Source: Candidatus Multivoradales bacterium
GTDB taxonomy: Bacteria > Acidobacteriota > Thermoanaerobaculia > Multivoradales > JAHEKO01
Assembly (NCBI GenBank): GCA_965223855.1
Contig: CBDCXM010000009.1
Coordinates: 1,184,001-1,248,000, forward strand
DNA: 64,000 nucleotides
Direction of reading: 5' to 3'
Shown: piece after piece, positions 2 to 11,495 of the stretch
How positions within the stretch are numbered: the first letter of the stretch is position 1
How the letters are laid out: every line of letters begins with the position of its first letter
Notes under the pieces: generated by a model
The model's database searches: none
What the model was told of the DNA's origin: nothing
Seen by the model: only the letters and a program-made list of their open reading frames with translations
Program-made: the position numbers and the translations under genes

Positions 2-2683
2 GGCGCCGAGTTCAACGACCGGCTGCTCGAAGCGCTCCCGGGCCTGGGTCAGCACGGCTGCTCCTACCGAGAGCCGGGGGGTTTCGTCCGCCGGCTCACC
101 GAGGGCGACGGCACCTGGATGGGGCACATCCTCGAGCACGTGGCGATCGAGCTGCAGAACGTCGCCGGGTCCGCCGTCACGTTCGGCAAGACCCGTGGGA
201 CCGGCAATCCGCGGGAGTACGACGTCGTCTACCAGTATCTCGATCGCGACGTCGGCCTCGAGGCGGGCAGCCTGGCGATGGAGCTGCTCGAGAGTCTGTT
301 GCCGGACGAGGTTCGTCCCGCCTCGACCGACCCCGACGGATTCAACTGGGACGACACCCGGGATCGCTTCATCCGCTCTACCCAGCGCCGCGCGCTCGGC
401 CCGAGCACCGCGTCGATCGTCAAGGCGGCGGAGGAGCGCGACATCCCGTGGCTGCGGCTCAACCGCTACAGCCTGGTGCAGCTCGGTCACGGTGCCTACA
501 GCCGCCGCATCCAGGCGACGGTGACCGGCGAGACCAAGCACATCGCCGTGGAGCTCGCCTCCGACAAGGAGGAGACCAACAAGATCCTCGCCGATCTCGG
601 CCTGCCGGTGCCGCGTCAGGAGATGGTCTACGACGAGCGCGACGCCGTTCGAGCGGCGGAGCGCATCGGTTACCCGGTGGTCGTCAAGCCGCTCAACGCC
701 AACCACGGCCGCGGCGTGTCGATCAACCTGACCGACCGCGAGTCGGTCGCCGTGGGATTCGCCAAGGCGCGCGAGCACAGCCGCGCGGTGCTGGTGGAGA
801 GCTTCATCACCGGGCTCGACCACCGGCTGCTGGTGGTCAACGGCGAGCTGATCGCCGCCTCGAAGCGGGTCCCGGGCCACGTCGTCGGCGACGGCGAGCA
901 CACGATCGAGCAGCTGGTGGAGATCGTCAACAGCGACCCGCGGCGCGGCGTCGGCCACGAGAAGGTTCTCACCCGGCTCGAGTTCGACCATCAGGCGGAA
1001 CGGCTCCTGGCGCTCAACGGCCTCGACCACACCAGTGTGCCGGCGGAAGGCGATGTCGTCTTCCTGCGCAAGACCGCCAATCTCTCGACCGGCGGCACGG
1101 CGATCGACGTCACCGACATCATCCATCCCGACAATCGCGAGATGGCGATCCGGGCGGCCCGCGCGATCGGGCTCGACTGCGCCGGCATCGACTTCCTGAC
1201 CGACGACATCTCGCAGTCGTTCCAGGAGAACGGCGGCGCGATCTGCGAGGTCAACGCGGCACCCGGCTTCCGCATGCATGTCGCTCCCAGCGAGGGGCAG
1301 CCGCGGGATGCCGCCGGCCCGGTGATCGACATGCTCTTCCCGCCGGGGACGCCGTCGCGGATCCCTATCGCCTCGATCACCGGCACCAACGGCAAGACGA
1401 CGACCAGCCGCATGACCGCGCACGTCCTCAAGATGAGCGGCAAGCGGGTCGGGCTGACGACTTCGGACGGCGTCTACATCGACGGCTACCGCACCGTGGC
1501 GGGCGACATGACCGGACCGACCGCCGCCCGCATGGTGCTGCGCGACGCGACCTGCGACGTCGCCGTGCTGGAGACCGCGCGCGGCGGCCTGCTGCGTGCC
1601 GGGATGGGCTACCGGCGCAACAACGTCGGCGCGGTGCTCAACGTCGCTGCCGATCATCTGGGCTTGAAAGGGATCGAGACGGTCGAGGAGCTGGCGCGGG
1701 TCAAGCGGATCGTCGTCGAGGTCTCCCGCGACACGGCGGTGCTCAACGCCGACGATCCGCTGTGTCTCAAGATGGCGGACTACACGAGGGCCGATCATCT
1801 CTGCTACGTGACGATGAACCCGCGCCACCCGCTGGTGCGCGAGCACATCAACGCCGACGGCCGCGCCGTGGTCCTCGAAGAGGGGATGAACGGCCACATG
1901 ATCACGATCTACGACGGCGGCACCCACATCCCGCTCCTGTGGACTCACCTCATCCCGGCGACGGTCGAAGGCAAGGCGCTCCACAACGTGCAGAACGCGA
2001 TGTTCGCCGCGGCGATCACGTACTCGATGGGCGTCGGTCTCGACGACATCCGCCAGGGGTTGAGGACCTTCGACACCAGCTACTTCCAGGCGCCGGGGCG
2101 GCTCAACATCTACAACGAGCACCCGTTCAAGGTGATCCTCGACTACGCGCACAACCCGCATGCGGTGCAGGCGATCGTGCGGCTGTGCGACCAGCTCGAC
2201 GTCGAGGGATCGAAGCGCTGCGTGCTGGCGGCGCCGGGCGATCGGCGCGACGAGGACATCGACGAGATCGCGACGATCTGTGCCGGGCACTTCGACCGCT
2301 ACATCGTCAAGCGCGACGACGATGCGCGCGGCCGCGGACCGACCGAGGTGCCGGAGCGGCTCCACAGAGCGCTCGTCGCGGCGGGGGTCGACGAAGCGGC
2401 GATCGAGATCATTGTCGACGAGAAGGAGGCGATCCATACCGCCCTCAAGCGCTCGCAGCACGGCGACTTGCTCCTCATCCTCGGCGACAAGATCAACCGT
2501 TGCTGGAAGCAGATCACCACCTTCTCGCCCGACCTGGAGATGCCTCCCGAGGAAGAGGTGGCGCCGCCACCCAAGGCGGCCGCCCCGGTCGACGATCTGC
2601 CCGAGCTCGACCTGCCGCCGATCGACGACCTGATTCGCGACGAGCGGGGCGTGCGCCTGGCGCGCGAGGAAGAGAACGACTGA
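2..2683 (+). CDS. cphA: Cyanophycin synthetase CphA1 (5' end lies before the window)
   Basis: Frame is open from base 2 (…LPGLGQHGCSYREPGGFVRRL…WMGHILEHVAIELQ: N-domain Cys…HxxEH). ATP-grasp motifs VVKPLNANHGRGV and EVNAAPGFRMH; Mur-like domain ITGTNGKTTT, ETARGG, DYAHNP. Confidence 0.96.
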   Translation, partial: GAEFNDRLLEALPGLGQHGCSYREPGGFVRRLTEGDGTWMGHILEHVAIELQNVAGSAVTFGKTRGTGNPREYDVVYQYLDRDVGLEAGSLAMELLESLLPDEVRPASTDPDGFNWDDTRDRFIRSTQRRALGPSTASIVKAAEERDIPWLRLNRYSLVQLGHGAYSRRIQATVTGETKHIAVELASDKEETNKILADLGLPVPRQEMVYDERDAVRAAERIGYPVVVKPLNANHGRGVSINLTDRESVAVGFAKAREHSRAVLVESFITGLDHRLLVVNGELIAASKRVPGHVVGDGEHTIEQLVEIVNSDPRRGVGHEKVLTRLEFDHQAERLLALNGLDHTSVPAEGDVVFLRKTANLSTGGTAIDVTDIIHPDNREMAIRAARAIGLDCAGIDFLTDDISQSFQENGGAICEVNAAPGFRMHVAPSEGQPRDAAGPVIDMLFPPGTPSRIPIASITGTNGKTTTSRMTAHVLKMSGKRVGLTTSDGVYIDGYRTVAGDMTGPTAARMVLRDATCDVAVLETARGGLLRAGMGYRRNNVGAVLNVAADHLGLKGIETVEELARVKRIVVEVSRDTAVLNADDPLCLKMADYTRADHLCYVTMNPRHPLVREHINADGRAVVLEEGMNGHMITIYDGGTHIPLLWTHLIPATVEGKALHNVQNAMFAAAITYSMGVGLDDIRQGLRTFDTSYFQAPGRLNIYNEHPFKVILDYAHNPHAVQAIVRLCDQLDVEGSKRCVLAAPGDRRDEDIDEIATICAGHFDRYIVKRDDDARGRGPTEVPERLHRALVAAGVDEAAIEIIVDEKEAIHTALKRSQHGDLLLILGDKINRCWKQITTFSPDLEMPPEEEVAPPPKAAAPVDDLPELDLPPIDDLIRDERGVRLAREEEND

Positions 2684-2696
2684 CGGGGTTCCGCTC

Positions 2697-4382
2697 TTGG
2701 AAGTCCGCGACAGCCGCCGCCTGACCGGCCCCAACATCGTCTCCGACGGTCCGGCTGCGGTCTTGGACGTCGTGCGCGGCGAGGGTGACGACGCCGAGGC
2801 TGCGATCGCCGCCTGGCGATCGCAGCTCGAGCGGATGCTCATGGCGGTCGGCTGGCAGGGAGCCCAGACCTTCACCCGGATCTTCCACGGCGGCCTGAGC
2901 GTCGCCTTCGCCGCCCCGATCGACGCCCTCTACGCCGCCACCGAGGTCAACGAATGGGCGTGGGCCGCCGCGGTCGAGGAGCTGGGTGGCGACCCGGCGC
3001 CGGAGTTCGAGGCGGAGGCGGAGCGGCTGCGCGCCGAGATCGCGGGCGAGCTGAATCCGCCGGTCCTCGCGCTCCAGAAGGCAGCCGCCGTGCACGGGGT
3101 CCAGTTCCTGTGGGACGACGACTTCGTCTCGGTCGGCCTCGGCTCCGGTTCGCGAACCTGGAAGGTGTCCGGCGTGCCCGACCCGGGCGACGTCGACTGG
3201 GCGTCGGTTCACGATGTCCCGGTGGCTCAGGTGACCGGAACCAACGGCAAGACGACCACGGTGCGGCTCCTCGCTGCGATGGTGCGTGCCGCCGGCAAGG
3301 TCCCCGGCGTTTCGTCGACCGACTGGATCGCCGCGGGTGACGAGCTGCTCGATCGGGGCGACTACTCCGGCCCCGGGGGAGCGCGCCAGGTGCTGCGCGA
3401 CCGCCGGGTCGAATGCGCAATCCTCGAGACCGCGCGCGGCGGGATGCTGCGACGAGGGCTGGCGGTGGAGGCGACCGACGTCGCGCTGGTCAACAACATC
3501 GCGGAGGATCATCTCGGCGAGTTCGGCGTCCACGACCTCGACGCGCTGGCCGAGTGCAAGTTCATCGTCTCCCGGGCGGCGCGGCACATGGTGCTCAATG
3601 CCGATGACCCGGTGGTGCGGCGGCACGGCGAGGCGGTCGAGCAGCCGATTACCTGGTTCTCGCTGGATCGAGAGAACCCGCTCATCATCGCCCATCGCGA
3701 GCGCGGCGGTTCGACGTGCGTCCTCGAGTGGGGGCGGATCGTACTGGCGCAGGGAGACGACAAGGTGGCGGTCGCGGAGGTCGCCGAGGTTCCGGTGACC
3801 CTCGGCGGGGCGGCACGTCACAACGTCGCCAACGTTCTCGCTGCGACGGCGGTCGCGCAGCAGCTCGGCCTTTCCGTGCGCGCGATCGGCGAGGGGTTGC
3901 GCAACTTCGAGAGCACTCCCGACACCAACCCCGGCCGCCTCAACGAGTTCGAGGTCGGCGGTGCGCGGGTCATCGTCGACTTCGCCCACAACCCACACGG
4001 CGTCGAGGCGCTGCTCGAGATGGCGGCGGCACTGCCTGGCAAACGGCGGTTGATCACGATCGGCCAGGCGGGGGATCGCGACGACGACTCGATTCGCGAT
4101 CTCGCCCGGGCGACCTGGAAGGCGGCGCCCGACCGCGTGCTGATCAAGGCGATGACCGCCTATCTCCGAGGCCGCGAGGAGGGCGAGATCCCGGCGATGC
4201 TCGAGGCCGAGATGCGCGCGCACGGCGCGACCGACGCGCATCTGGTGCACACCGGGGACGAGCTCGACACGGCGCGCGCCGCTCTCGACTGGGCCGAGAA
4301 GGGCGATCTCGTGCTCCTGATAGTCCACTCCGATCGCGAGCGGGTGGTCGAGTTCCTGCGCGAGCAGGCTAACGAACGGTGA
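2697..4382 (+). CDS. CphA-related Mur-ligase-domain protein lacking the ATP-grasp domain
   Basis: N-terminus 'SRRLTGPN' resembles CphA starts. VTGTNGKTTT, GDYSGPGGAR, ETARGG, PGRLN, DFAHNP and GDRDD align with the cphA M domain. No ATP-grasp motifs. TTG start 13 nt after the cphA stop. Confidence 0.85.
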   Translation: MEVRDSRRLTGPNIVSDGPAAVLDVVRGEGDDAEAAIAAWRSQLERMLMAVGWQGAQTFTRIFHGGLSVAFAAPIDALYAATEVNEWAWAAAVEELGGDPAPEFEAEAERLRAEIAGELNPPVLALQKAAAVHGVQFLWDDDFVSVGLGSGSRTWKVSGVPDPGDVDWASVHDVPVAQVTGTNGKTTTVRLLAAMVRAAGKVPGVSSTDWIAAGDELLDRGDYSGPGGARQVLRDRRVECAILETARGGMLRRGLAVEATDVALVNNIAEDHLGEFGVHDLDALAECKFIVSRAARHMVLNADDPVVRRHGEAVEQPITWFSLDRENPLIIAHRERGGSTCVLEWGRIVLAQGDDKVAVAEVAEVPVTLGGAARHNVANVLAATAVAQQLGLSVRAIGEGLRNFESTPDTNPGRLNEFEVGGARVIVDFAHNPHGVEALLEMAAALPGKRRLITIGQAGDRDDDSIRDLARATWKAAPDRVLIKAMTAYLRGREEGEIPAMLEAEMRAHGATDAHLVHTGDELDTARAALDWAEKGDLVLLIVHSDRERVVEFLREQANER

Positions 4383-5571
4383 CGAGGTCGAGTCCGACGG
4401 CTCGTGCATGCCGGTCGAGGGCGACGTCGATCGCCCGGTCCTCACGCGCGCCGCAGCCGTCCTCGAGGTAGCGCGCCAGCGTCGCGATCGTTCCCGCGCG
4501 CCGGTCGGCCTTGAGATCGACCCGCCCGACCAGCCGTTCGCCGGCGAGCACCGGCAGGCAGTAGTAGCCCCACCGCCGCTGGTGAGCCGGCTTGAAGATC
4601 TCGAGCACCTGTTCGAAGCCGAACAGCAGCTTCGTGCGCTCCCGGTCCCACAGTGCCGGGTCGAAGGGGGAAAGGAGAACTCCCCGGTCGCTCCGCGGGC
4701 GCAGCGTCGCGGCCCGCTCGGCGAGGTCGAGATCCCGAGGCCGGATCCACCCCGCCTGCCGCTTGCCCTGAGGGAGCTGCAGGCTGCAGGGGACGACTCG
4801 ACCCTCCGACTCCAGTTCGGCCAGGGCGGCGTCGATCTCGGCAGTGAGATTGCTCAGCCTCCAGGTGCGGGCGAGGGTCCCCCGGGTCGCCCATCCGTGG
4901 CCGGCGAGCGCGCGCTCGAGGAGGACCTTGAGGCCCCGATGGCGATCGAGCGGCCGCCGTCGGATCTCCTCGGGGATGACCCGCTCGGCGAGGTCGAAGG
5001 AGCGCTGGAAACTGCGGCGCTCGCTGACGGCGAGCACACCGTTCGACCAGTAGGCGCGCAGTACCCGCTTGGCGGCCTTGGGATACCAGCCGCTCCCAGC
5101 GGGTGTCTCCCCCTCGAAGTCGGCGGATCGCAGCGGGCCCTCGTGCTCGATCCGATCGAGCACCTCGCGAGCCAGCGCCGGGTCCTTGCCGACGACGTCG
5201 CCGTACCAGGGGTCGTACTCGAAGTCGCCGCGCCGGAACTCGAACGCCGGGTAGAGCTCCATCGGCAGCCAGCACGCCTCGTGGGCCCAGTACTCGAAGA
5301 CCGGCTCGCCCGGCCGCAGCAGCGCCTCGCCGAAGTCCGGGTCGATTCCCTCGAAGCGCGACAGCAGCACCAGCACGTGACTGCGCGCCCCGGCGACGCC
5401 GACGGTGTCGAGTTGCAGATAGCCGAAGCGCCGCAGCAGCCGGTGAGCCGCGCGCCGTGCGCGCTTGCCGCCGCCCCTCGCCCGTCGCGGCAGACCGGTC
5501 CACTCCGGCTTGACCAGCCCGCCCCGGACGAGCGCCAGCCTGCGGGCGCGGCGGACGTCGATCGAGTTCAA
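4369..5571 (-). CDS. YcaQ/AlkZ-family (HTH_42) DNA crosslink-repair glycosylase
   Basis: LQLDTV, FEYWAHEAC, LLSPFDP…DRER, RRWGYY.LP motifs. TTG start at 5571 overlaps the upstream gene's TGA. Confidence 0.88.
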   Translation of the reverse strand: MNSIDVRRARRLALVRGGLVKPEWTGLPRRARGGGKRARRAAHRLLRRFGYLQLDTVGVAGARSHVLVLLSRFEGIDPDFGEALLRPGEPVFEYWAHEACWLPMELYPAFEFRRGDFEYDPWYGDVVGKDPALAREVLDRIEHEGPLRSADFEGETPAGSGWYPKAAKRVLRAYWSNGVLAVSERRSFQRSFDLAERVIPEEIRRRPLDRHRGLKVLLERALAGHGWATRGTLARTWRLSNLTAEIDAALAELESEGRVVPCSLQLPQGKRQAGWIRPRDLDLAERAATLRPRSDRGVLLSPFDPALWDRERTKLLFGFEQVLEIFKPAHQRRWGYYCLPVLAGERLVGRVDLKADRRAGTIATLARYLEDGCGAREDRAIDVALDRHARAVGLDLVTVR

Positions 5572-6311
5572 CTGCGCTCGCGCCCGGCCGGCGGCCGGCG
5601 CCGTGCCGAGCGGCGGCCGAAGATCGGCATGACGATCGCCAGCAGCGAGTAGGTCCAGCCAGGCAGGGCGAGCGCCGCCCACCGCTCGGGGAGGACGATC
5701 GCCAGCAGCATCGAGGCGACCCCGGCACCACCGACGATCGACCACGCCACGATCTCCGCGCGGGTCTCGTGGCGTTCGAGCGCGTCGAGCCCAAGAGCAT
5801 TCCGTAAGCGCCAGGCGTGCAGGTTGAGCAGCAGGATCGAAGCACACATGGCGACGAAGCCGGCGCCGTAGATCAGGAACATCTGATTGACCTGTGCCGC
5901 CGACTCGATGCCGGAGCGCCCGCGATCGCTGCCGAGGAGGAGAGAGAACTGATCCGCCATCGCTCCCGACATGAAACGCAGCGGGTAGACATAGACCAGG
6001 ACCGTGAAGACCAGCAGGCAGCTCAGCAGGATGGTCGGCGTGTCGTCGAGGCCGAAGCGGCGGCTCCAGTTGTGGTGGGCTGTCCAGAACATCATCAGCA
6101 GCACCGCGCTGAAGAGGAACGGCGGGATCTCCCACATCACCGCGACCAGGCCTGCGTAGTCATCCGGAACGTCGGTCGCCAGGACGAGAAGCGTCAGCGC
6201 GAAGGCGAACGCCGCGTCGGTGAAGGTCTCGATGCGGGTGGTGGCGAGGCCGCGCAGGCGGAAGCCGTCGCGGGTCGGCAGGTCGGCGAGCTGGCGATCG
6301 GTGAGGCTCAC
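5568..6311 (-). CDS. TMEM175 (DUF1211) family K+ channel-like membrane protein
   Basis: RIETFTDAAFAFALTLL (RxxxFSD-type motif), W..HH, about 6 hydrophobic helices. C-terminal part of ORF 5568..7979; GTG start chosen. Confidence 0.85.
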   Translation of the reverse strand: MSLTDRQLADLPTRDGFRLRGLATTRIETFTDAAFAFALTLLVLATDVPDDYAGLVAVMWEIPPFLFSAVLLMMFWTAHHNWSRRFGLDDTPTILLSCLLVFTVLVYVYPLRFMSGAMADQFSLLLGSDRGRSGIESAAQVNQMFLIYGAGFVAMCASILLLNLHAWRLRNALGLDALERHETRAEIVAWSIVGGAGVASMLLAIVLPERWAALALPGWTYSLLAIVMPIFGRRSARRRPPAGRERS

Positions 6312-6434
6312 TGGAACCGAAGGATCATACCGGCGAAGTGACGGACGGCACGGTTTCGGAGACCTCTTCCCCTCAGGTAGGGTTGGGGGAAGTGCACGAA
6401 TGAAAGATCGACAAGGTTCGAGATGGGGATCCCG

Positions 6435-7073
6435 ATGAGGTTCTACCGAACTGCTGCGCTCGCCACCCTCTCGCTGGCCGGAGTTCTGGCCAGTGCCGAG
6501 ACGGAGGGTCGAGAACGCCGCCAGCGCGGTGAGCGGGTCGGAGCTCCGATCCGGGGTCTGGAACGGGCGGAACGCTTCGAGGGCGGCGGTCTGGTGCAGT
6601 ACGACCCTGGTCTCCCAGACGGTACTCGTTTCACCGATCAGGGCTTCAGTTGGCTGGGCAACCTCTTCGACACTCGGAGCGGTTCGCCGCTGGGACCAGG
6701 CACGATAACCCAGATTCAGTGGTACAACGGTCAAACCAACCCGACCGACAACTATCTCGTGATCTTCCCGCAGTCCGGTCCCGACTACGGTGGTTTCGTG
6801 GGGTCCGTCGACAGCTTTGCTTTCAACACCTATAACCTCATCCATGGGCCCGTGACGGCGCCGGTTTTCGTCGGGTTCTACGCGGCCGACCAACCGGCCA
6901 CGCCGGTCAGCCTCGGTTACGCCAATGGCAGCTACAACGGCCAGGGCTTCCATGCATCGCAACGGACGTTCTTCGACAGTGCGGGCGAGACCATCCCTGG
7001 AATGAACATCGTGCTGCGCATCTCCGGAAGTCTCATCATTCCGGTGGAGTTGCTCGAGTTCGAGGTCGAGTAG
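6435..7073 (+). CDS. Exported hypothetical protein with C-terminal IPVELLEFEVE tail
   Basis: Signal peptide MRFYRTAALATLSLAGVLASA; G/N/T/Y-rich beta-type body; YDPG motif; terminal PVEL motif. Confidence 0.75.
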   Translation: MRFYRTAALATLSLAGVLASAETEGRERRQRGERVGAPIRGLERAERFEGGGLVQYDPGLPDGTRFTDQGFSWLGNLFDTRSGSPLGPGTITQIQWYNGQTNPTDNYLVIFPQSGPDYGGFVGSVDSFAFNTYNLIHGPVTAPVFVGFYAADQPATPVSLGYANGSYNGQGFHASQRTFFDSAGETIPGMNIVLRISGSLIIPVELLEFEVE

Positions 7074-7163
7074 TCGTGATCCCGGGCAGCGAGGCTTGCG
7101 GTGACGGGGAACCGCGGGAGGTGAGCAGCTGCCTCCAGAACCCCCGGTAGTAAACTCCTCGAC

Positions 7164-8045
7164 TTGAAGCCGGCACCATTCGAATACCGGGCTCCCCGCA
7201 CGCTCGACGAGGTTCTCGAGCTGCTGGCGGAGCACGGCCCGGAGGCGAAGCTGCTGGCGGGCGGGCAGAGCCTGATCCCGGTGATGAACTTCCGGCTGGC
7301 GCAGCCGGCGCTGCTGGTCGATCTCAACGGTGTCGAGGGGCTCGACGGTTGGGAGCCGACGGCGGACGGGGGCGTGCGGATCGGCGGTCTGAGCCGCCTG
7401 AGCGCGCTCGAGCGGCGGCCGGAGTTGGCCGCCCACTCTCCGCTGCTGGCCGAGGCGCTGCCGTGGGTCGCTCATCCGCAGATCCGCAATCGCAGCACCC
7501 TGGGCGGGACCCTCGCCCACGCCGACCCGGCCGCCGAGGTACCGGCGGTCTGTCTCGCCGAGGGGGCGCGGTTCCGGATCGCTCGTCGGGAGGGCGAGCG
7601 CTGGGTCGAGGCGCGCGACTTCTTCCGCGGTCTCTTCGACACCGCGCTCGAGCCGGAGGAGGCGCTGGTCGAAGTCGAGCTGCCGCCGCCGTCCGCCGCT
7701 ACCGGCAGCAGCTTCCAGGAGATCGCCCGCCGGCACGGCGATTACGCTCTCGCCGGCGTCGCGGCGCGCGTCGAGCTCGACGGTGACGGCGCGATCCGTC
7801 GCGCCCGGCTGGTCTACCTGAGTGTCGGCGATACGCCGGTCGAGGCGCGGGCGGCGAGCGACATGCTCGAAGGCGAGAGCCCTTCGTCCGAGCTCTTCGC
7901 CGCCGCCGCGGCGCACGCTGCGGAGCACGAGGTCGATCCGGCCGGCACGATCCACGCCACGCCGGAGTTCACCCGCCATCTGGTCGGGGTGCTCACCCGG
8001 CGAGCGCTGACGGCGGCCGTCGCCCGCGCGGGAGGGGCGGCATGA
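7164..8045 (+). CDS. Xanthine dehydrogenase/CoxM-family FAD-binding subunit
   Basis: MKPAPFEY, LAGGQSLIP, HPQIRNRSTLGG, ADPAAE, RRHGDYA. Confidence 0.93.
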   Translation: MKPAPFEYRAPRTLDEVLELLAEHGPEAKLLAGGQSLIPVMNFRLAQPALLVDLNGVEGLDGWEPTADGGVRIGGLSRLSALERRPELAAHSPLLAEALPWVAHPQIRNRSTLGGTLAHADPAAEVPAVCLAEGARFRIARREGERWVEARDFFRGLFDTALEPEEALVEVELPPPSAATGSSFQEIARRHGDYALAGVAARVELDGDGAIRRARLVYLSVGDTPVEARAASDMLEGESPSSELFAAAAAHAAEHEVDPAGTIHATPEFTRHLVGVLTRRALTAAVARAGGAA

Positions 8046-8551
8046 GCGACCGGGCTCAGGGCGCCCGTCTACCGGTGCGGCTCGAGGTCAACGGCGCGAG
8101 CTATGAGGGCGAGGCGGAGCCGCGGACGCTCCTTTCCGACTTCCTGCGCCACGACCTCGGGCTGACCGGCACGCACGTCGGCTGTGAGCACGGGGTGTGC
8201 GGCGCCTGTACGGTGCTCTTCGACGGCGAGGCGGTGCGTGCCTGCCTGCTGCTGGCGGTGCAGGCCGACGGCCATCGGATCGAGACGGTGGAGGGGCTCG
8301 CTCCCGCCGACGGCGACGAACGGCTTCATCCGCTGCAGCAGGCGTTCCAGGACGCGCACGGGCTGCAGTGCGGTTTCTGCACCCCGGGCTTTCTGATGAC
8401 GCTGGTGCCGTTCCTCGAGGCGAATCCCGACCCGAGCGAAGAGGAGATCCGGCACGCCATCTCCGGCAACCTGTGCCGTTGCACCGGCTACCAGCACATC
8501 GTCGATGCGGTGCAGCTCGCGGCGCGCCGGCAGCGCGGGGAGGACGAGTGA
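8042..8551 (+). CDS. CoxS-family 2x[2Fe-2S] subunit
   Basis: GCEHGVCGACTV, QCGFCTPG, GNLCRCTGY. Confidence 0.95.
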   Translation: MSDRAQGARLPVRLEVNGASYEGEAEPRTLLSDFLRHDLGLTGTHVGCEHGVCGACTVLFDGEAVRACLLLAVQADGHRIETVEGLAPADGDERLHPLQQAFQDAHGLQCGFCTPGFLMTLVPFLEANPDPSEEEIRHAISGNLCRCTGYQHIVDAVQLAARRQRGEDE

Positions 8552-9837
8552 TCGCGAGTCCGGCGCCCGGTTCGCTCGCGGCAGCGTCGGACGTCGACCG
8601 CTGGCTCGAAGGGCTGCGACTCGCCTTCGACGAGGTCGAACCTCTGGTCGGCGCCTTCGTCGAGGAGCCCGATCGCTGGTCGCGGCTCGCGGCTGCCGCG
8701 CGGAGCCTCCTCCTGCGCTACCCCGACGAGCGCGATCGTCCGCCGTTCTTCGGCGTCGCGGTCGGGGTCAAGGACATCTTCCATGTCGACGGTCTCGAGA
8801 CCCGGGCGGGAAGCAGCGTACCGCCGGCCGAGCTCGCCGGCCCGCAGGCGGAGTCGGTACGCCGCCTCGCGGCCGCCGGAGCGATCGTCCTCGGCAAGAC
8901 GGTGACGACCGAGTTCGCCTACTTCGCGCCGCGCGGCACGCGCAACCCGGCCGATCCCGACCGCACTCCGGGCGGGTCGTCGAGCGGCTCGGCCGCGGCC
9001 GTCGCTGCCGGGCTGTGTCCTCTTTCTCTGGGGACACAGACGATCGGCTCGATCTCCCGACCCGCCTCCTACTGCGGCGTGGTCGGCTTCAAGCCGAGCT
9101 ACGAGCGCATCCCGAGGACGGGAGTCATCCCGCTGGCGCCGTCGGTCGATCACGTCGGCTTCTTCACCCCGGATGTCGCGGCCGCCCGCCGGGCCGCCGC
9201 CGTGCTCCTCGACGGCTGGCTCGGCGGGGGAGACGGGCGGCCCCCACGGCTGGCGATTCCGACCGGGCCTTACCTCGACGCCCTCGAGCCGGGTGGGCGC
9301 GAGCGCTTCGAGCGCGGCTGCCGTCTGCTGGCGGACGCCGGGCTGGAGTGGCAGGACGTCCCTGCGATGCCGGACTTCGACGACGTGGTTGCCCGTCACC
9401 GGCGTCTCGTCGCCGCCGAAGCCGCCGAGGTGCATCGCGAGTGGTTCGCGCGCTACGGCGAGAGCTACCACCCGAAGACCCGCGAGCTGATCGAATCGGG
9501 GCTCGAGGTCGACGCCGAAGAGCTGGAAGCGGCACGGCGCGGGCGTCTGCGGCTCCGACAAGAGCTCGAGTCCGAGATGGAGCGCCACGGGATCGACGTC
9601 TGGCTGACGCCGGCCTCCCAGGACGTTGCGCCGACCGGCCTCGACTCGACCGGGGATCCGATCCTCAACCTGCCATGGAGCCATGCCGGTCTGCCATCGA
9701 TCACCCTGCCGTCGATCACTCCGGCGGCTTCGGCGAAGGGCGAGCTGCCGTTCGGGCTGCAGTTCGTCGGCCGGTTCGGCGCCGACGAGGCGCTTCTCGA
9801 GGCGGCAGCCGCGTGGGAAAGGGGGCTCGGCCGTTGA
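8548..9837 (+). CDS. Amidase-signature (Ser-cisSer-Lys) family amidase
   Basis: GVKD, GKTVTTEFA, TPGGSSSGSAAAVA, GTQTIGSISRPASYCGVVGFKPS. GTG start overlaps the coxS-like TGA. Confidence 0.92.
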   Translation: MIASPAPGSLAAASDVDRWLEGLRLAFDEVEPLVGAFVEEPDRWSRLAAAARSLLLRYPDERDRPPFFGVAVGVKDIFHVDGLETRAGSSVPPAELAGPQAESVRRLAAAGAIVLGKTVTTEFAYFAPRGTRNPADPDRTPGGSSSGSAAAVAAGLCPLSLGTQTIGSISRPASYCGVVGFKPSYERIPRTGVIPLAPSVDHVGFFTPDVAAARRAAAVLLDGWLGGGDGRPPRLAIPTGPYLDALEPGGRERFERGCRLLADAGLEWQDVPAMPDFDDVVARHRRLVAAEAAEVHREWFARYGESYHPKTRELIESGLEVDAEELEAARRGRLRLRQELESEMERHGIDVWLTPASQDVAPTGLDSTGDPILNLPWSHAGLPSITLPSITPAASAKGELPFGLQFVGRFGADEALLEAAAAWERGLGR

Positions 9838-11495
9838 GCGTCGAGCGCCACATCGTCCGCACCGGGTCCTACTTCGACTCGGTCGTGCTGATGCAGTTGC
9901 AGCGCCGGCTGGCCGAGCTCGACGGGGTCGAGGAGGCGGGGGTGGTCATGGCGACTCGAGCCAACCTCGAGCTGCTCTCGCGAGCGGGTTTGCAGACCGA
10001 GCGAATCGAGGCACGACCGGACGACCTCCTGGTCCTGGTCCGGGGCACGACCGAAGCCGCGGCGCGCAGTGCTCTCGACCGCTTCGACGAGCTGGCGGGC
10101 GAGCGGACCGCGGCCGCGGCGACCGACTACCGCCCGAAGAGTGTGGCGACGGCGCTCAAGGAGCGCCCGGAGGCGAACTGGGTCCTGGTGTCGGTTCCCG
10201 GAGAGTACGCAGCCGCCGTCGCCCGCCAGGCGATCGATGCCGGGCGACACGTCTTCCTCTACAGCGACAACGTGTCGCTGGAAGACGAGGTGGCACTCAA
10301 GCGCCATGCCGAGCGCCGCAGGCGGCTGGTGCTGGGGCCGGACTGCGGCACCGCGATGATCGGCGGGGCGGGCCTCGGCTTCGCCAACCGGGTGCGTCGG
10401 GGGGACGTCGGTATCGTCGCCGCGTCGGGGACCGGTCTCCAGACGATCGCCTCGAGGCTCCATCGTGAGGGGAGAGGGGTGTCGCACGGCATCGGCACCG
10501 GTGGTCGCGATCTGGCGAGCGACGTCGGCGGTCGCACGGCGCTGGCCGCCCTGGCCGCGCTGGCGGCGGACGAGGAGACCCGGGTCGTGGTGCTGGTCTC
10601 GAAGCCGCCGCATCCCGAAGTCGCGGCGCGCCTCCTGTCGGCCGCCGCGAGGGTCGGCAAGCCGGTGGTCGTCCATTTCCAGGGGCGCGGCCTTGCCGGG
10701 CGGCGCCTCGGCCCGCTCCACTTCGCCGTCGACCTCGAGCATGCGGCCGCTCTGGCAGCCGAGCTGGCCGAGAAGCCTCCGCCGCCGTTCGAGCCGACAG
10801 GCGACGGCCTCCTCCGCGGCCTCTTCTCGGGAGGCACGTTGGCGGGCGAGGCGGTGGTGCGGCTCGAGCCTCTGCTGCCGGAACTGGTCTCCAACCTGTC
10901 CAAGGAGAGTTCGATCGTCGATCTTTCGACCTTCGCCGGCCACGCAGTGCTCGACCTCGGGGCCGACCAGTTCACCGTCGGTCGGCCGCACCCGATGATC
11001 GATCCGCAGGTGGTGGCGGAGCACCTCTCCCACGCGGCCGCCGACAAGAGGGTCGCGACGATCGTCGTCGACGTCGTCCTCGGTGACGGTGCCCACCCCG
11101 ACCCGGCGTCAATCCTCGCTCCGGCGATCGAGCGTGCCCGCAGGAAGGCACGCGAGGACCTGGCCGTCCTCGCCCTCGTCGTCGGTACCGAGGAAGACCG
11201 CCAGGAGATCGGCGCGCAGTGCGACCGGCTCGAGGAGGCGGGTGCCGAGGTGTTCGATTCGCTGTCGCCGGCGCTCGAGCGGGTCGTCGCGCGTTCGCTC
11301 CCTCCGAGGACCGAAGACGAGGTTCGGGCGATCGCCCTCGAGCCGCCGCGGGAGGTGATCAACGTCGGCATCGATCTCTTCCGCGAGAGCCTCGAGGCGC
11401 AGGAGGTGCCGGTGCTGCAGGTCGATTGGCGGCCGCCCGCCGGCGGCAACGAGAAACTCGCCACGATCGTGGCGCGACTGAGGGAGAGCGCATGA
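9834..11495 (+). CDS. fdrA: FdrA/AllF-like acyl-CoA-synthetase-fold protein
   Basis: YFDSVVLM, SVPGEYA, FLYSDNV, GPDCGTA, GIGTGGRDL, GLFSGGTLA, GRPHPMIDP, VDWRPPAGGN. TTG start overlaps the amidase TGA. Confidence 0.9.
   Translation: MSVERHIVRTGSYFDSVVLMQLQRRLAELDGVEEAGVVMATRANLELLSRAGLQTERIEARPDDLLVLVRGTTEAAARSALDRFDELAGERTAAAATDYRPKSVATALKERPEANWVLVSVPGEYAAAVARQAIDAGRHVFLYSDNVSLEDEVALKRHAERRRRLVLGPDCGTAMIGGAGLGFANRVRRGDVGIVAASGTGLQTIASRLHREGRGVSHGIGTGGRDLASDVGGRTALAALAALAADEETRVVVLVSKPPHPEVAARLLSAAARVGKPVVVHFQGRGLAGRRLGPLHFAVDLEHAAALAAELAEKPPPPFEPTGDGLLRGLFSGGTLAGEAVVRLEPLLPELVSNLSKESSIVDLSTFAGHAVLDLGADQFTVGRPHPMIDPQVVAEHLSHAAADKRVATIVVDVVLGDGAHPDPASILAPAIERARRKAREDLAVLALVVGTEEDRQEIGAQCDRLEEAGAEVFDSLSPALERVVARSLPPRTEDEVRAIALEPPREVINVGIDLFRESLEAQEVPVLQVDWRPPAGGNEKLATIVARLRESA

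Follow-up and report, generated by a model that had tools for sequence, protein, structure and literature searches.

A free-standing N-M relative of cyanophycin synthetase, encoded beside cphA1, is a candidate ligase acting in trans on cyanophycin

Cyanophycin serves as a nitrogen reserve, and it is of interest as a potential bioplastic and as a feedstock for dipeptides. In a 64,000-nucleotide stretch from a Candidatus Multivoradales bacterium (assembly GCA_965223855.1, contig CBDCXM010000009.1, positions 1,184,001 to 1,248,000; the whole of it is referred to here as the window), the gene for a cyanophycin synthetase 1 (cphA1) is followed by a gene at 2697..4382 on the plus strand that encodes a protein of 561 residues. 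This protein will be called the partner, and the adjacent CphA1, encoded in frame 2..2683, will be called P0003. The partner combines a complete M domain with a predicted N domain of the CphA type, and it lacks nearly all of the ATP-grasp G domain. The interpretation that we favour, and to which sequence and structural models together lead us to give about an even chance, is that the partner would be a free-standing, catalytically competent N-M ligase that acts in trans on cyanophycin, with a tailoring, capping or finishing role.

The M domain of the partner is formed by the Mcore (residues 173–406; 3213..3914, plus strand), which contains the P-loop GTNGKTT (N183, K185 and T186), T208, E244 and the pair D271-H272, and by the Mlid, i.e., the Mur ligase C-terminal domain (residues 407–561; 3915..4379, plus strand), which contains R414 and H431 (DFAHNPH). 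Both parts score above the Pfam gathering cutoffs, with 71.0 bits for Mur_ligase_M (PF08245, cutoff 24) and 63.1 bits for Mur_ligase_C (PF02875, cutoff 28.4), and no other Pfam model matched the protein; with the P-loop also present, the partner is a member of the Mur ligase superfamily. Residues 173–561 are 34% identical to the M domain of P0003 over 377 amino acids (BLASTP, E 2e-60). A profile built from 15 members of the family recovered the solved CphA1 chains in the Protein Data Bank (PDB) with E values from 2e-92 to 5e-85, and the best MurE-type chain with 2e-24; in this search the Mcore was aligned to residues 487–855 of SuCphA1 at E 2e-92. The P-loop, ETARGG, DH and DFAHNPH motifs, which an earlier note on this DNA had described as intact, are so, and they are invariant among 68 members of the family. 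The residues of the TeCphA1 M domain that handle ATP and Mg are N497, K499, T500, T522, E558, R731 and H748 (PMC9427784); the profile alignment pairs them with N183, K185, T186, T208, E244, R414 and H431 of the partner, all of which are invariant or at least 90% conserved in the 68-sequence alignment. Likewise, a comparison of 71 partner and 65 CphA1 sequences revealed 58 columns of the M domain in which both families have the same residue, with a conservation of at least 90%. Judged from its sequence, the partner resembles a working ATP-dependent ligase, and the enzyme is probably active.

Because these catalytic residues are conserved, the partner fits the role of an enzyme better than that of a regulator only. 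The tight operon linkage and the stop/start overlaps described below are typical of subunits of one complex, and from them a subunit of the CphA1 oligomer could be imagined that is regulatory or has no catalytic role, would influence chain length or localisation, for example, and would bind ATP for regulation only; moreover, within the CphA1 tetramer Mcore is in contact with three Gcore modules (PMC9427784), and an extra Mcore could in principle dock there. We consider this improbable, given that the residues that bind Mg, the catalytic pair D-H and the residues of the M-lid that contact ATP are fully conserved in the 68 sequences, which argues for turnover, and that most of Gcore, the main oligomerisation module, is absent from the partner.

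The N-terminal 172 residues of the partner were matched by no Pfam or NCBIfam model. None of 57 N domains of the family matched the Pfam cyanophycin models (PF18921) at E<=10, and a hidden Markov model (HMM) of the partner N domain found no CphA among the PDB sequences, its best match being to unrelated proteins at E 0.25. The N-side BLASTP alignment with P0003 is weak (E 0.83), and the ESM Atlas gave for the N part only a sub-threshold lead, i.e., a cluster with 57% PF18921 at rank 4 with a score of 0.80. The structural models, on the other hand, clearly predict that the partner has a CphA-fold N domain packed on the Mcore, an assignment that comes from structure only. The weights of AlphaFold2 (AF2) are older than the structures of CphA1, whose release dates from 2021. 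The AF2 model of the whole partner (68 sequences, templates not used) reached a pLDDT of 94.7 and a pTM of 0.93 and showed a CphA1-like N-M fold, which was the outcome of one of the checks proposed in the earlier note, for the partner alone. With Foldseek, this model was aligned to the full CphA1 chains 7lgj, 7lg5, 7wae and 7lgq with query-normalised TM scores (TMq) of 0.83–0.85 over ~880 alignment columns, as compared with 0.56–0.62 for CphA1 chains in which the Mlid is unresolved, and ~0.54 for MurE. Given that the M domain accounts for only 70% of the query, values of 0.83–0.85 require that the N part superposes in its CphA1 orientation. When the N part was modelled alone (AF2, 57 sequences) the pLDDT was 95.7, and all 14 PDB matches with E<=0.001 were CphA1 or CphA2 chains (E 1e-6 to 4e-4, TMq 0.51–0.66); the first unrelated match had an E of 2.6e-3 and a TMq of 0.29.

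The N domain defined in this way comprises residues 1–102 (2697..3002, plus strand), with the β-β-α-β-β-α order of CphA and the family motifs DSRRLTGPN and APIDALYAATEVNE. Residues 1–170 contain neither a Cys nor an HxxEH, so the Cys...HxxEH metal site is lacking, as had been claimed previously. PMC9262961 describes this motif as the metallopeptidase site with which CphA1 generates primers, gives its frequency among CphA1 as 83%, and reports it for SuCphA1 as C-x19-HxxEH. The CphA1s associated with the partner show C-x21-HxxEH (C58...H80, E83 and H84 in full-length numbering), invariant in 20 sequences.

Residues 103–172 (3003..3212, plus strand) replace the G domain of ~330 residues with a linker helix and a remnant of the first Gcore segment, folded as a helix and a small β-sheet. 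In two hhalign runs, partner residues 103–152 were aligned with residues 153–203 of CphA1 (E 0.0057 and 0.0037), and no other N-terminal stretch was; since the Gcore of TeCphA1 starts at residue 162 (PMC9427784), the aligned stretch was assigned as the remnant of that segment. It amounts to ~45 residues of Gcore, of which the model shows only the helix and the small sheet at residues 121–156. The rest of Gcore, the Glid and G-omega, ~280 residues in all, are absent, and no ATP-grasp Pfam model matches the partner, i.e., the backbone-extending G domain of CphA1 was not found in it. The earlier note had presented the partner as collinear with CphA and its ATP-grasp domain as cleanly deleted. The strings that it quoted are present with the spacings given, VQLGHG (160–165) and ITGTNGKTTT (459–468) being 293 residues apart in P0003, and VGLGSG (146–151) and VTGTNGKTTT (179–188) 27 apart in the partner. 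Collinearity holds by sequence for the M side, and for the N side it is faint by sequence and borne out by structure; the G domain is indeed gone, but the cut does not fall exactly at the domain border. In CphA1, the isolated N domain needs surface mutations for solubility, owing to a hydrophobic loop that normally rests against the M domain (PMC9262961); thus, N plus M would be a natural self-contained unit that binds the end of cyanophycin and activates a carboxylate.

The link of the partner to cyanophycin is strong. In a scan of one genome per species, 381 stretches matched, 368 of these were confirmed, and the best 80 loci were examined. A CphA-type gene lies beside the partner in 75 of the 80, in four the contig ends too early on the side that matters, and one (L055) has no CphA-type gene within ~8 kb. 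In 62 loci the partner is immediately preceded by a cphA1 of the same orientation, either complete or truncated by the contig end; in nine a convergent cphA1 lies directly downstream; in one (L051) cphA1 is located 1.2 kb upstream; and in three (L015, L016 and L062) the adjacent gene is a reduced CphA-like one of ~600 codons, L015 having in addition a full cphA1 at a distance of 6.2 kb. A cyanophycinase gene (TIGR02069, 260 bits, cutoff 127) was found in 65 of the 80 loci by clustering of open reading frames (ORFs) and in 66 by tblastn, and a gene for the β-aspartyl peptidase IadA (TIGR01975, 393 bits, cutoff 331) in 28 and 29, respectively. The usual gene order is cphB-cphA1-X, where X is the partner. 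These results answer the neighbourhood survey that the earlier note had called for: the homologues are tightly linked to cphA1, cphB and iadA.

The interval between the stop codon of cphA1 and the conserved beginning of the partner was measured in 54 loci where the two genes are co-directional and the ORFs complete; it ranges from -1 to 114 nucleotides (median 14), and in nine of these loci the stop and start overlap by one nucleotide; in 18 of the 54 the conserved N-terminal position is not a start codon, and the true start must be elsewhere. The same arrangement is found in the RefSeq records of Ruegeria sp. AD91A and Shinella zoogloeoides ATCC 19623, where cyanophycinase and cphA are followed 12–14 nucleotides later by a homologue of the partner. 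A plasmid of Deinococcus taeanensis encodes a CphA1 that is 60% identical, in the order cphA-iaaA-cphB and with no partner, and therefore the partner accompanies only part of the CphA1 family. In two loci (L041 and L074) the partner is flanked by two full-length cphA1 genes, one ~3.6–3.8 kb upstream on the opposite strand and the other convergent downstream, and each copy has its own cyanophycinase match.

This context bears on the names given to the family in databases, "UDP-N-acetylmuramyl tripeptide synthase" or "Mur ligase family protein", which together with weak matches to MurE models would suggest a common Mur ligase of the peptidoglycan or folate type (similar to MurE, MurT or FolC) whose position next to cphA is fortuitous. 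The partner does resemble MurE and the other peptidoglycan Mur ligases in its P-loop, in the folds of Mur_ligase_M and Mur_ligase_C and in the expected chemistry, which proceeds through an acyl phosphate at the expense of ATP. However, its scores are below all Mur cutoffs, its structural similarity to MurE is low (TMq only ~0.54), its N terminus is predicted to fold as the N domain of CphA and not as a UDP-binding domain, and its conserved neighbours include a CphA-type gene in nearly all loci, with no cell-wall gene context and no glutaminase; this explanation is clearly disfavoured and we regard it as very improbable. Two specific identities were rejected. As MurE (TIGR01085) the partner obtained 106 bits, the cutoff being 257, and the domain that would bind UDP-MurNAc is replaced by the CphA-type N domain; as the MurT of a MurT/GatD lipid II amidotransferase it obtained 45.5 bits, the cutoff being 800, and the conserved neighbours are cphB, cphA1 and iadA only.

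The partners and the CphA1s were compared by an identity matrix and a nearest-neighbour check; this comparison is unrooted, with no MurE outgroup, and it gives no polarity to the deletion or insertion of the G domain. In the M domain, two partners have a mean identity of 52%, two CphA1s of 67%, and a partner and a CphA1 of 37%, and none of 136 M-domain sequences has its nearest neighbour in the other group; the partners are a family distinct from CphA1. A mirror comparison of the pairwise distances of partner and CphA1 over 57 loci gave r = 0.38, too weak to serve as evidence of co-evolution. The CphA1s that lie beside a partner keep all their M-domain motifs, and for this reason the partner is not replacing a dead domain.

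Within the M domain, the clearest difference between the two families concerns the M-lid (71 partners versus 65 CphA1s). In CphA1 it shows the patterns PGDRRD-x-D and [RK]-x-D-D-x-x-R-G-R, where D752, D772 and D773 (P0003 numbering) are 98–100% conserved, and SuCphA1 follows the same pattern with KEDDDKRGR. In the partner the corresponding patterns are GQAGDR-x-D and K-x-x-x-x-Y-L-R-G-R, and the residues at the positions of the three aspartates are variable; conversely, R253, K484, W532 and R547 are invariant in the partner and absent from CphA1. We take the acidic segment of the CphA1 M-lid to be the equivalent of the DNPR motif of MurE, which recognises the distal charged group of the amino-acid substrate. 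With these acidic residues lost, the nucleophile used by the partner is more likely not arginine, and lysine and ornithine are likewise not favoured. The earlier note had proposed an M-only enzyme that adds a different side-chain residue, lysine or ornithine for example; the conservation of the catalytic residues agrees with the first part of this proposal, whereas the two amino acids named fit poorly with the changed M-lid.

For the same reason, the partner is best seen as a tailoring, capping or finishing ligase and not as a second copy of the same activity. The alternative is that it performs in trans the reaction of the CphA1 M domain, adding arginine to the β-carboxylate of a terminal Asp, as a booster or finisher that rescues released Asp-terminated chains. 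Several observations are in line with this: CphA1 M domains are by far the closest relatives of the partner (E 2e-92, as compared with 2e-24 for MurE-type chains), the catalytic residues and the CphA-type Mcore motifs GDxxGP and LRD are all common to both families, the models preserve the N/Mcore packing, and the gene order with its stop/start overlaps suggests co-expression with CphA1. On the other hand, the CphA1 M domain is intact in the same operons, the acidic M-lid residues so strictly kept in CphA1 are not kept in the partner, and the low between-family identity, despite co-inheritance, fits a changed function better than redundancy. We consider an arginine-adding partner unlikely, though a rival to be taken seriously.

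According to the favoured interpretation, the partner would bind cyanophycin or Asp-terminated intermediates in the cleft between N and Mcore, and would phosphorylate a carboxylate of the polymer at the expense of ATP, most simply the β-carboxylate of an Asp without a side chain. An amine nucleophile would then be ligated to the activated carboxylate, in trans, on chains made by CphA1; the partner itself would be unable to extend the backbone or to cut primers, and the residue that it adds would probably be other than arginine. In a more specific and more tentative form of this proposal, which we regard as less likely than not, the partner would represent a third class of CphA-type enzyme, a trans tailoring ligase that adds a non-arginine residue, neutral or acidic, or a chain-terminating cap to the β-carboxylates of Asp.

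Several points weigh against the favoured interpretation. The M domain of the adjacent CphA1 is intact, and the need for a second M-type ligase is left unexplained. The assignment of D752, D772 and D773 of CphA1 to a pocket for the guanidinium of arginine holds only if the analogy with MurE does, and no definition of the arginine pocket of CphA1 was found among the accessible papers. One locus, L055 (9001–10672), and no other, lacks a CphA-type gene although its flanks are complete; its match to the partner switches frame near residue 339, which could reflect a pseudogene or a faulty assembly. Since the 80 loci have the highest scores among 368 and were retrieved through two motifs of the family, the sample is biased. 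Lastly, YAATEVNE, the most conserved helix motif of the N domain, is not a universal functional site, since it is absent from the homologues of Ruegeria and Shinella.

It could also be proposed that the partner is a small-molecule synthetase which makes β-Asp-X dipeptides or short primers from free amino acids, to be used by CphA1 or by the reduced CphA-like proteins. In PMC9262961 the origin of the first cyanophycin primers is called an open question; the partner has no primer-generating peptidase site, and in three of the 80 loci it adjoins a CphA-like protein of ~600 residues without ligase motifs. Nevertheless, a polymer-tethering N domain packed on the Mcore is not expected in such an enzyme, and the adjacent CphA1 keeps its C...HxxEH, so that a supply of primers is not obviously needed; this explanation appears improbable to us.

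The reduced proteins of these three loci (L015:11757-13559, L016:2892-4676 and L062:10717-12528, all on the minus strand) have features of their own. Their genes are convergent to the partner, and all three loci are from Thermoanaerobaculia. These core-only forms keep the C...HxxEH of the N domain and lack model positions ~240–393 (Glid and G-omega) and everything past ~715 (Mlid); their P-loops are degenerate (TGSRGKT, TGTRGKT and TGSFGKT), and ETARGG and DHLG are lost. In L062 the core-only gene occupies the position of cphA after cphB, and there is no full cphA1 within ~8 kb.

Among known systems, CphA1 (SuCphA1, 7LG5 and 7LGQ; TeCphA1, 7WAC and 7WAE) is the closest to the partner, since its chains are the best matches both in sequence and in structure and it is encoded in the same operon. 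The two share the fold of the N domain, its packing on the Mcore and a complete M domain with identical ATP and Mg residues; they differ in that the partner has no G domain apart from the short remnant, no Cys...HxxEH, an N domain that Pfam and HMM searches do not detect, and M-lid acids that are not conserved. The partner is also below the cutoffs of both whole-protein models of CphA1, with 368.6 bits for TIGR02068 (cutoff 850), where the match is confined to model positions 477–860, and 330 bits for PRK14016 (cutoff 877). CphA2, too, is a CphA paralogue that has undergone reduction and whose N domain is silent in catalysis, and its chains 8fxi, 8fxh and 7ta5 were matched by the N-only model of the partner. 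The reduction is nevertheless the opposite one: in CphA2 the G domain is active and the M domain is truncated and inactive (PMC10273328), whereas the partner lacks G and has a complete and, to judge from its residues, apparently active M domain with its Mlid. The features of CphA2 are therefore not those of the partner, and the description of the partner as a mirror image of CphA2, made in the earlier note, is apt.

No description of a CphA paralogue with the N-M architecture was found in the literature that could be searched. In a 2023 survey of cyanophycin genes (PMC10206079), the abstract and a search by terms revealed no such architecture. PMC10687191 mentions "longer" and "shorter" neighbouring copies of cphA, without a domain analysis, and PMC3646047 mentions a tree of "cyanophycin ligase-like proteins".

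If the favoured interpretation is correct, nature would already provide, as a gene of its own, a side-chain ligase with which the polymer could be tailored. To our knowledge, the composition of cyanophycin has so far been altered only through the loose specificity of CphA1. It would also follow that phyla abundant in soil, in sediment and in the sea may make a cyanophycin that differs from plain Asp-Arg. From this perspective evolution would have dismantled a three-site polymerase, with N plus M in the partner, N plus G in CphA2 and the N-domain site only in the core-only forms. Under the more tentative proposal of a third class of enzyme, Gemmatimonadota, Acidobacteriota, Planctomycetota, several Gammaproteobacteria and some bacteria of the Roseobacter and Rhizobium groups would make cyanophycin that is chemically different or controlled in length, and, with the proteins of the three loci described above, the three active sites of CphA would be split among specialised paralogues.

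Regarding the size of the family, a word-based search returned thousands of matches, of which the best 120 all have 550–632 residues and are 52–74% identical to the query over 97–100% of its length; their names go no further than "Mur ligase family protein", "UDP-N-acetylmuramyl tripeptide synthase" or "cyanophycin synthetase". A profile of the N domain recovered 796 proteins at E<=0.001, and 573 at E<=1e-10, from 1.84 billion cluster representatives (50% identity). The best 150 of these matches range from 97 to 645 residues, the full-length forms having ~556–620 and the rest being fragment-like, and none is of the size of CphA1; fused forms of the partner longer than 982 residues were not found among 2898 candidates scored, which is weak evidence. 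The genome scan mentioned above used the patterns YAATEVNE and SRRLTGPN[IL][LV] and misses divergent members, such as the homologues of Ruegeria and Shinella (L081 and L082), which match neither pattern exactly; therefore, 368 is an undercount.

All 80 loci are from metagenome-assembled genomes. By record title, 20 belong to Gemmatimonadota, 18 to Thermoanaerobaculia, 11 to other Acidobacteriota, 11 to Planctomycetota and 11 to Gammaproteobacteria; two are from Rhodothermales, one each from Alphaproteobacteria, Polyangiaceae, Glassbacteria and Multivoradales, and three are unclassified. The partner is co-inherited with cphA1 across at least seven phyla. In the plasmid database PLSDB, 24 records have a match at the level of the M domain, and four of them, from Ruegeria sp. 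AD91A, Ruegeria sp. THAF33, Roseateles sp. XES5 and Shinella zoogloeoides ATCC 19623, hold a full-length homologue (98–99% coverage, ~44% identity). The proteins of Ruegeria sp. AD91A (WP_117873666.1, 45% identity, E 9e-144) and S. zoogloeoides (WP_160788060.1, 44% identity, E 1e-118) are both labelled "Mur ligase family protein" in RefSeq, and in them YAATEVNE is replaced by YSAIFAAQ and FTAAFIVE, respectively. Given that the gene is present in cultured strains (S. zoogloeoides ATCC 19623 and Ruegeria spp.), its function is directly testable.

A protein of another kind was noted on plasmid 3 of Deinococcus deserti VCD115 (L084, locus 4023-6197), i.e., a "Mur ligase family protein" of 724 residues with a CphA-type M domain that is 35% identical to that of the partner, an N-terminal region of ~330 residues of unassigned nature and no adjacent cphA; similar matches come from D. 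taeanensis and Legionella adelaidensis.

In the window itself, cphA1 (2..2683, plus strand) has its 5' end cut by the window edge, and ~38 N-terminal codons lie outside, judging from full-length homologues. P0003 scores 1112 bits against TIGR02068 (cutoff 850), matches Cyanophycin_syn in its N domain, several ATP-grasp models including RimK, Mur_ligase_M and Mur_ligase_C in Pfam, and has the metal motif of the N domain as C-x21-HILEH; this frame encodes a genuine, canonical three-domain cyanophycin synthetase 1. Its stop codon, TGA, is at 2681–2683 and is followed by an intergenic spacer of 13 nucleotides (2684..2696, plus strand) with a GGGG run at 2685–2688, and then by the partner gene, which was correctly placed 13 nucleotides after cphA in the earlier note. 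This gene, an N-M CphA paralogue without the ATP-grasp G domain, has 561 codons and a TTG start at 2697–2699, which is supported by its homologues, since their N termini begin with M-x-x-x-D-S-R-R-L-T-G-P at the same position. A spurious ORF or a pseudogene was ruled out by the conservation of the protein and its invariant catalytic residues. A scan of 2400–4800 for promoters and terminators gave no sites, and a GC content of ~70% makes such a scan uninformative.

Downstream, a convergent ORF (4369..6135, minus strand) overlaps the 3' end of the partner gene by 14 nucleotides. It has no Pfam or NCBIfam match, and its residues 209–588 are 68% identical to ORFs found in the two nearest relatives only (L004 and L005). 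Since this ORF is convergent and conserved in those two relatives only, the partner is regarded as the last gene of its transcription unit. Further along, a long ORF at 5568–7979 (minus strand) has as its sole match a TMEM175 potassium channel at residues 582–661, and the real gene is probably much shorter. The stretches 7164–8551 and 8505–11495 (plus strand) hold the FAD-binding and 2Fe-2S subunits of a molybdopterin dehydrogenase similar to glyceraldehyde or xanthine dehydrogenases and, after them, an ORF for 996 residues, of which the first ~450 match nothing and residues 450–992 match the acyl-CoA synthetase FdrA.

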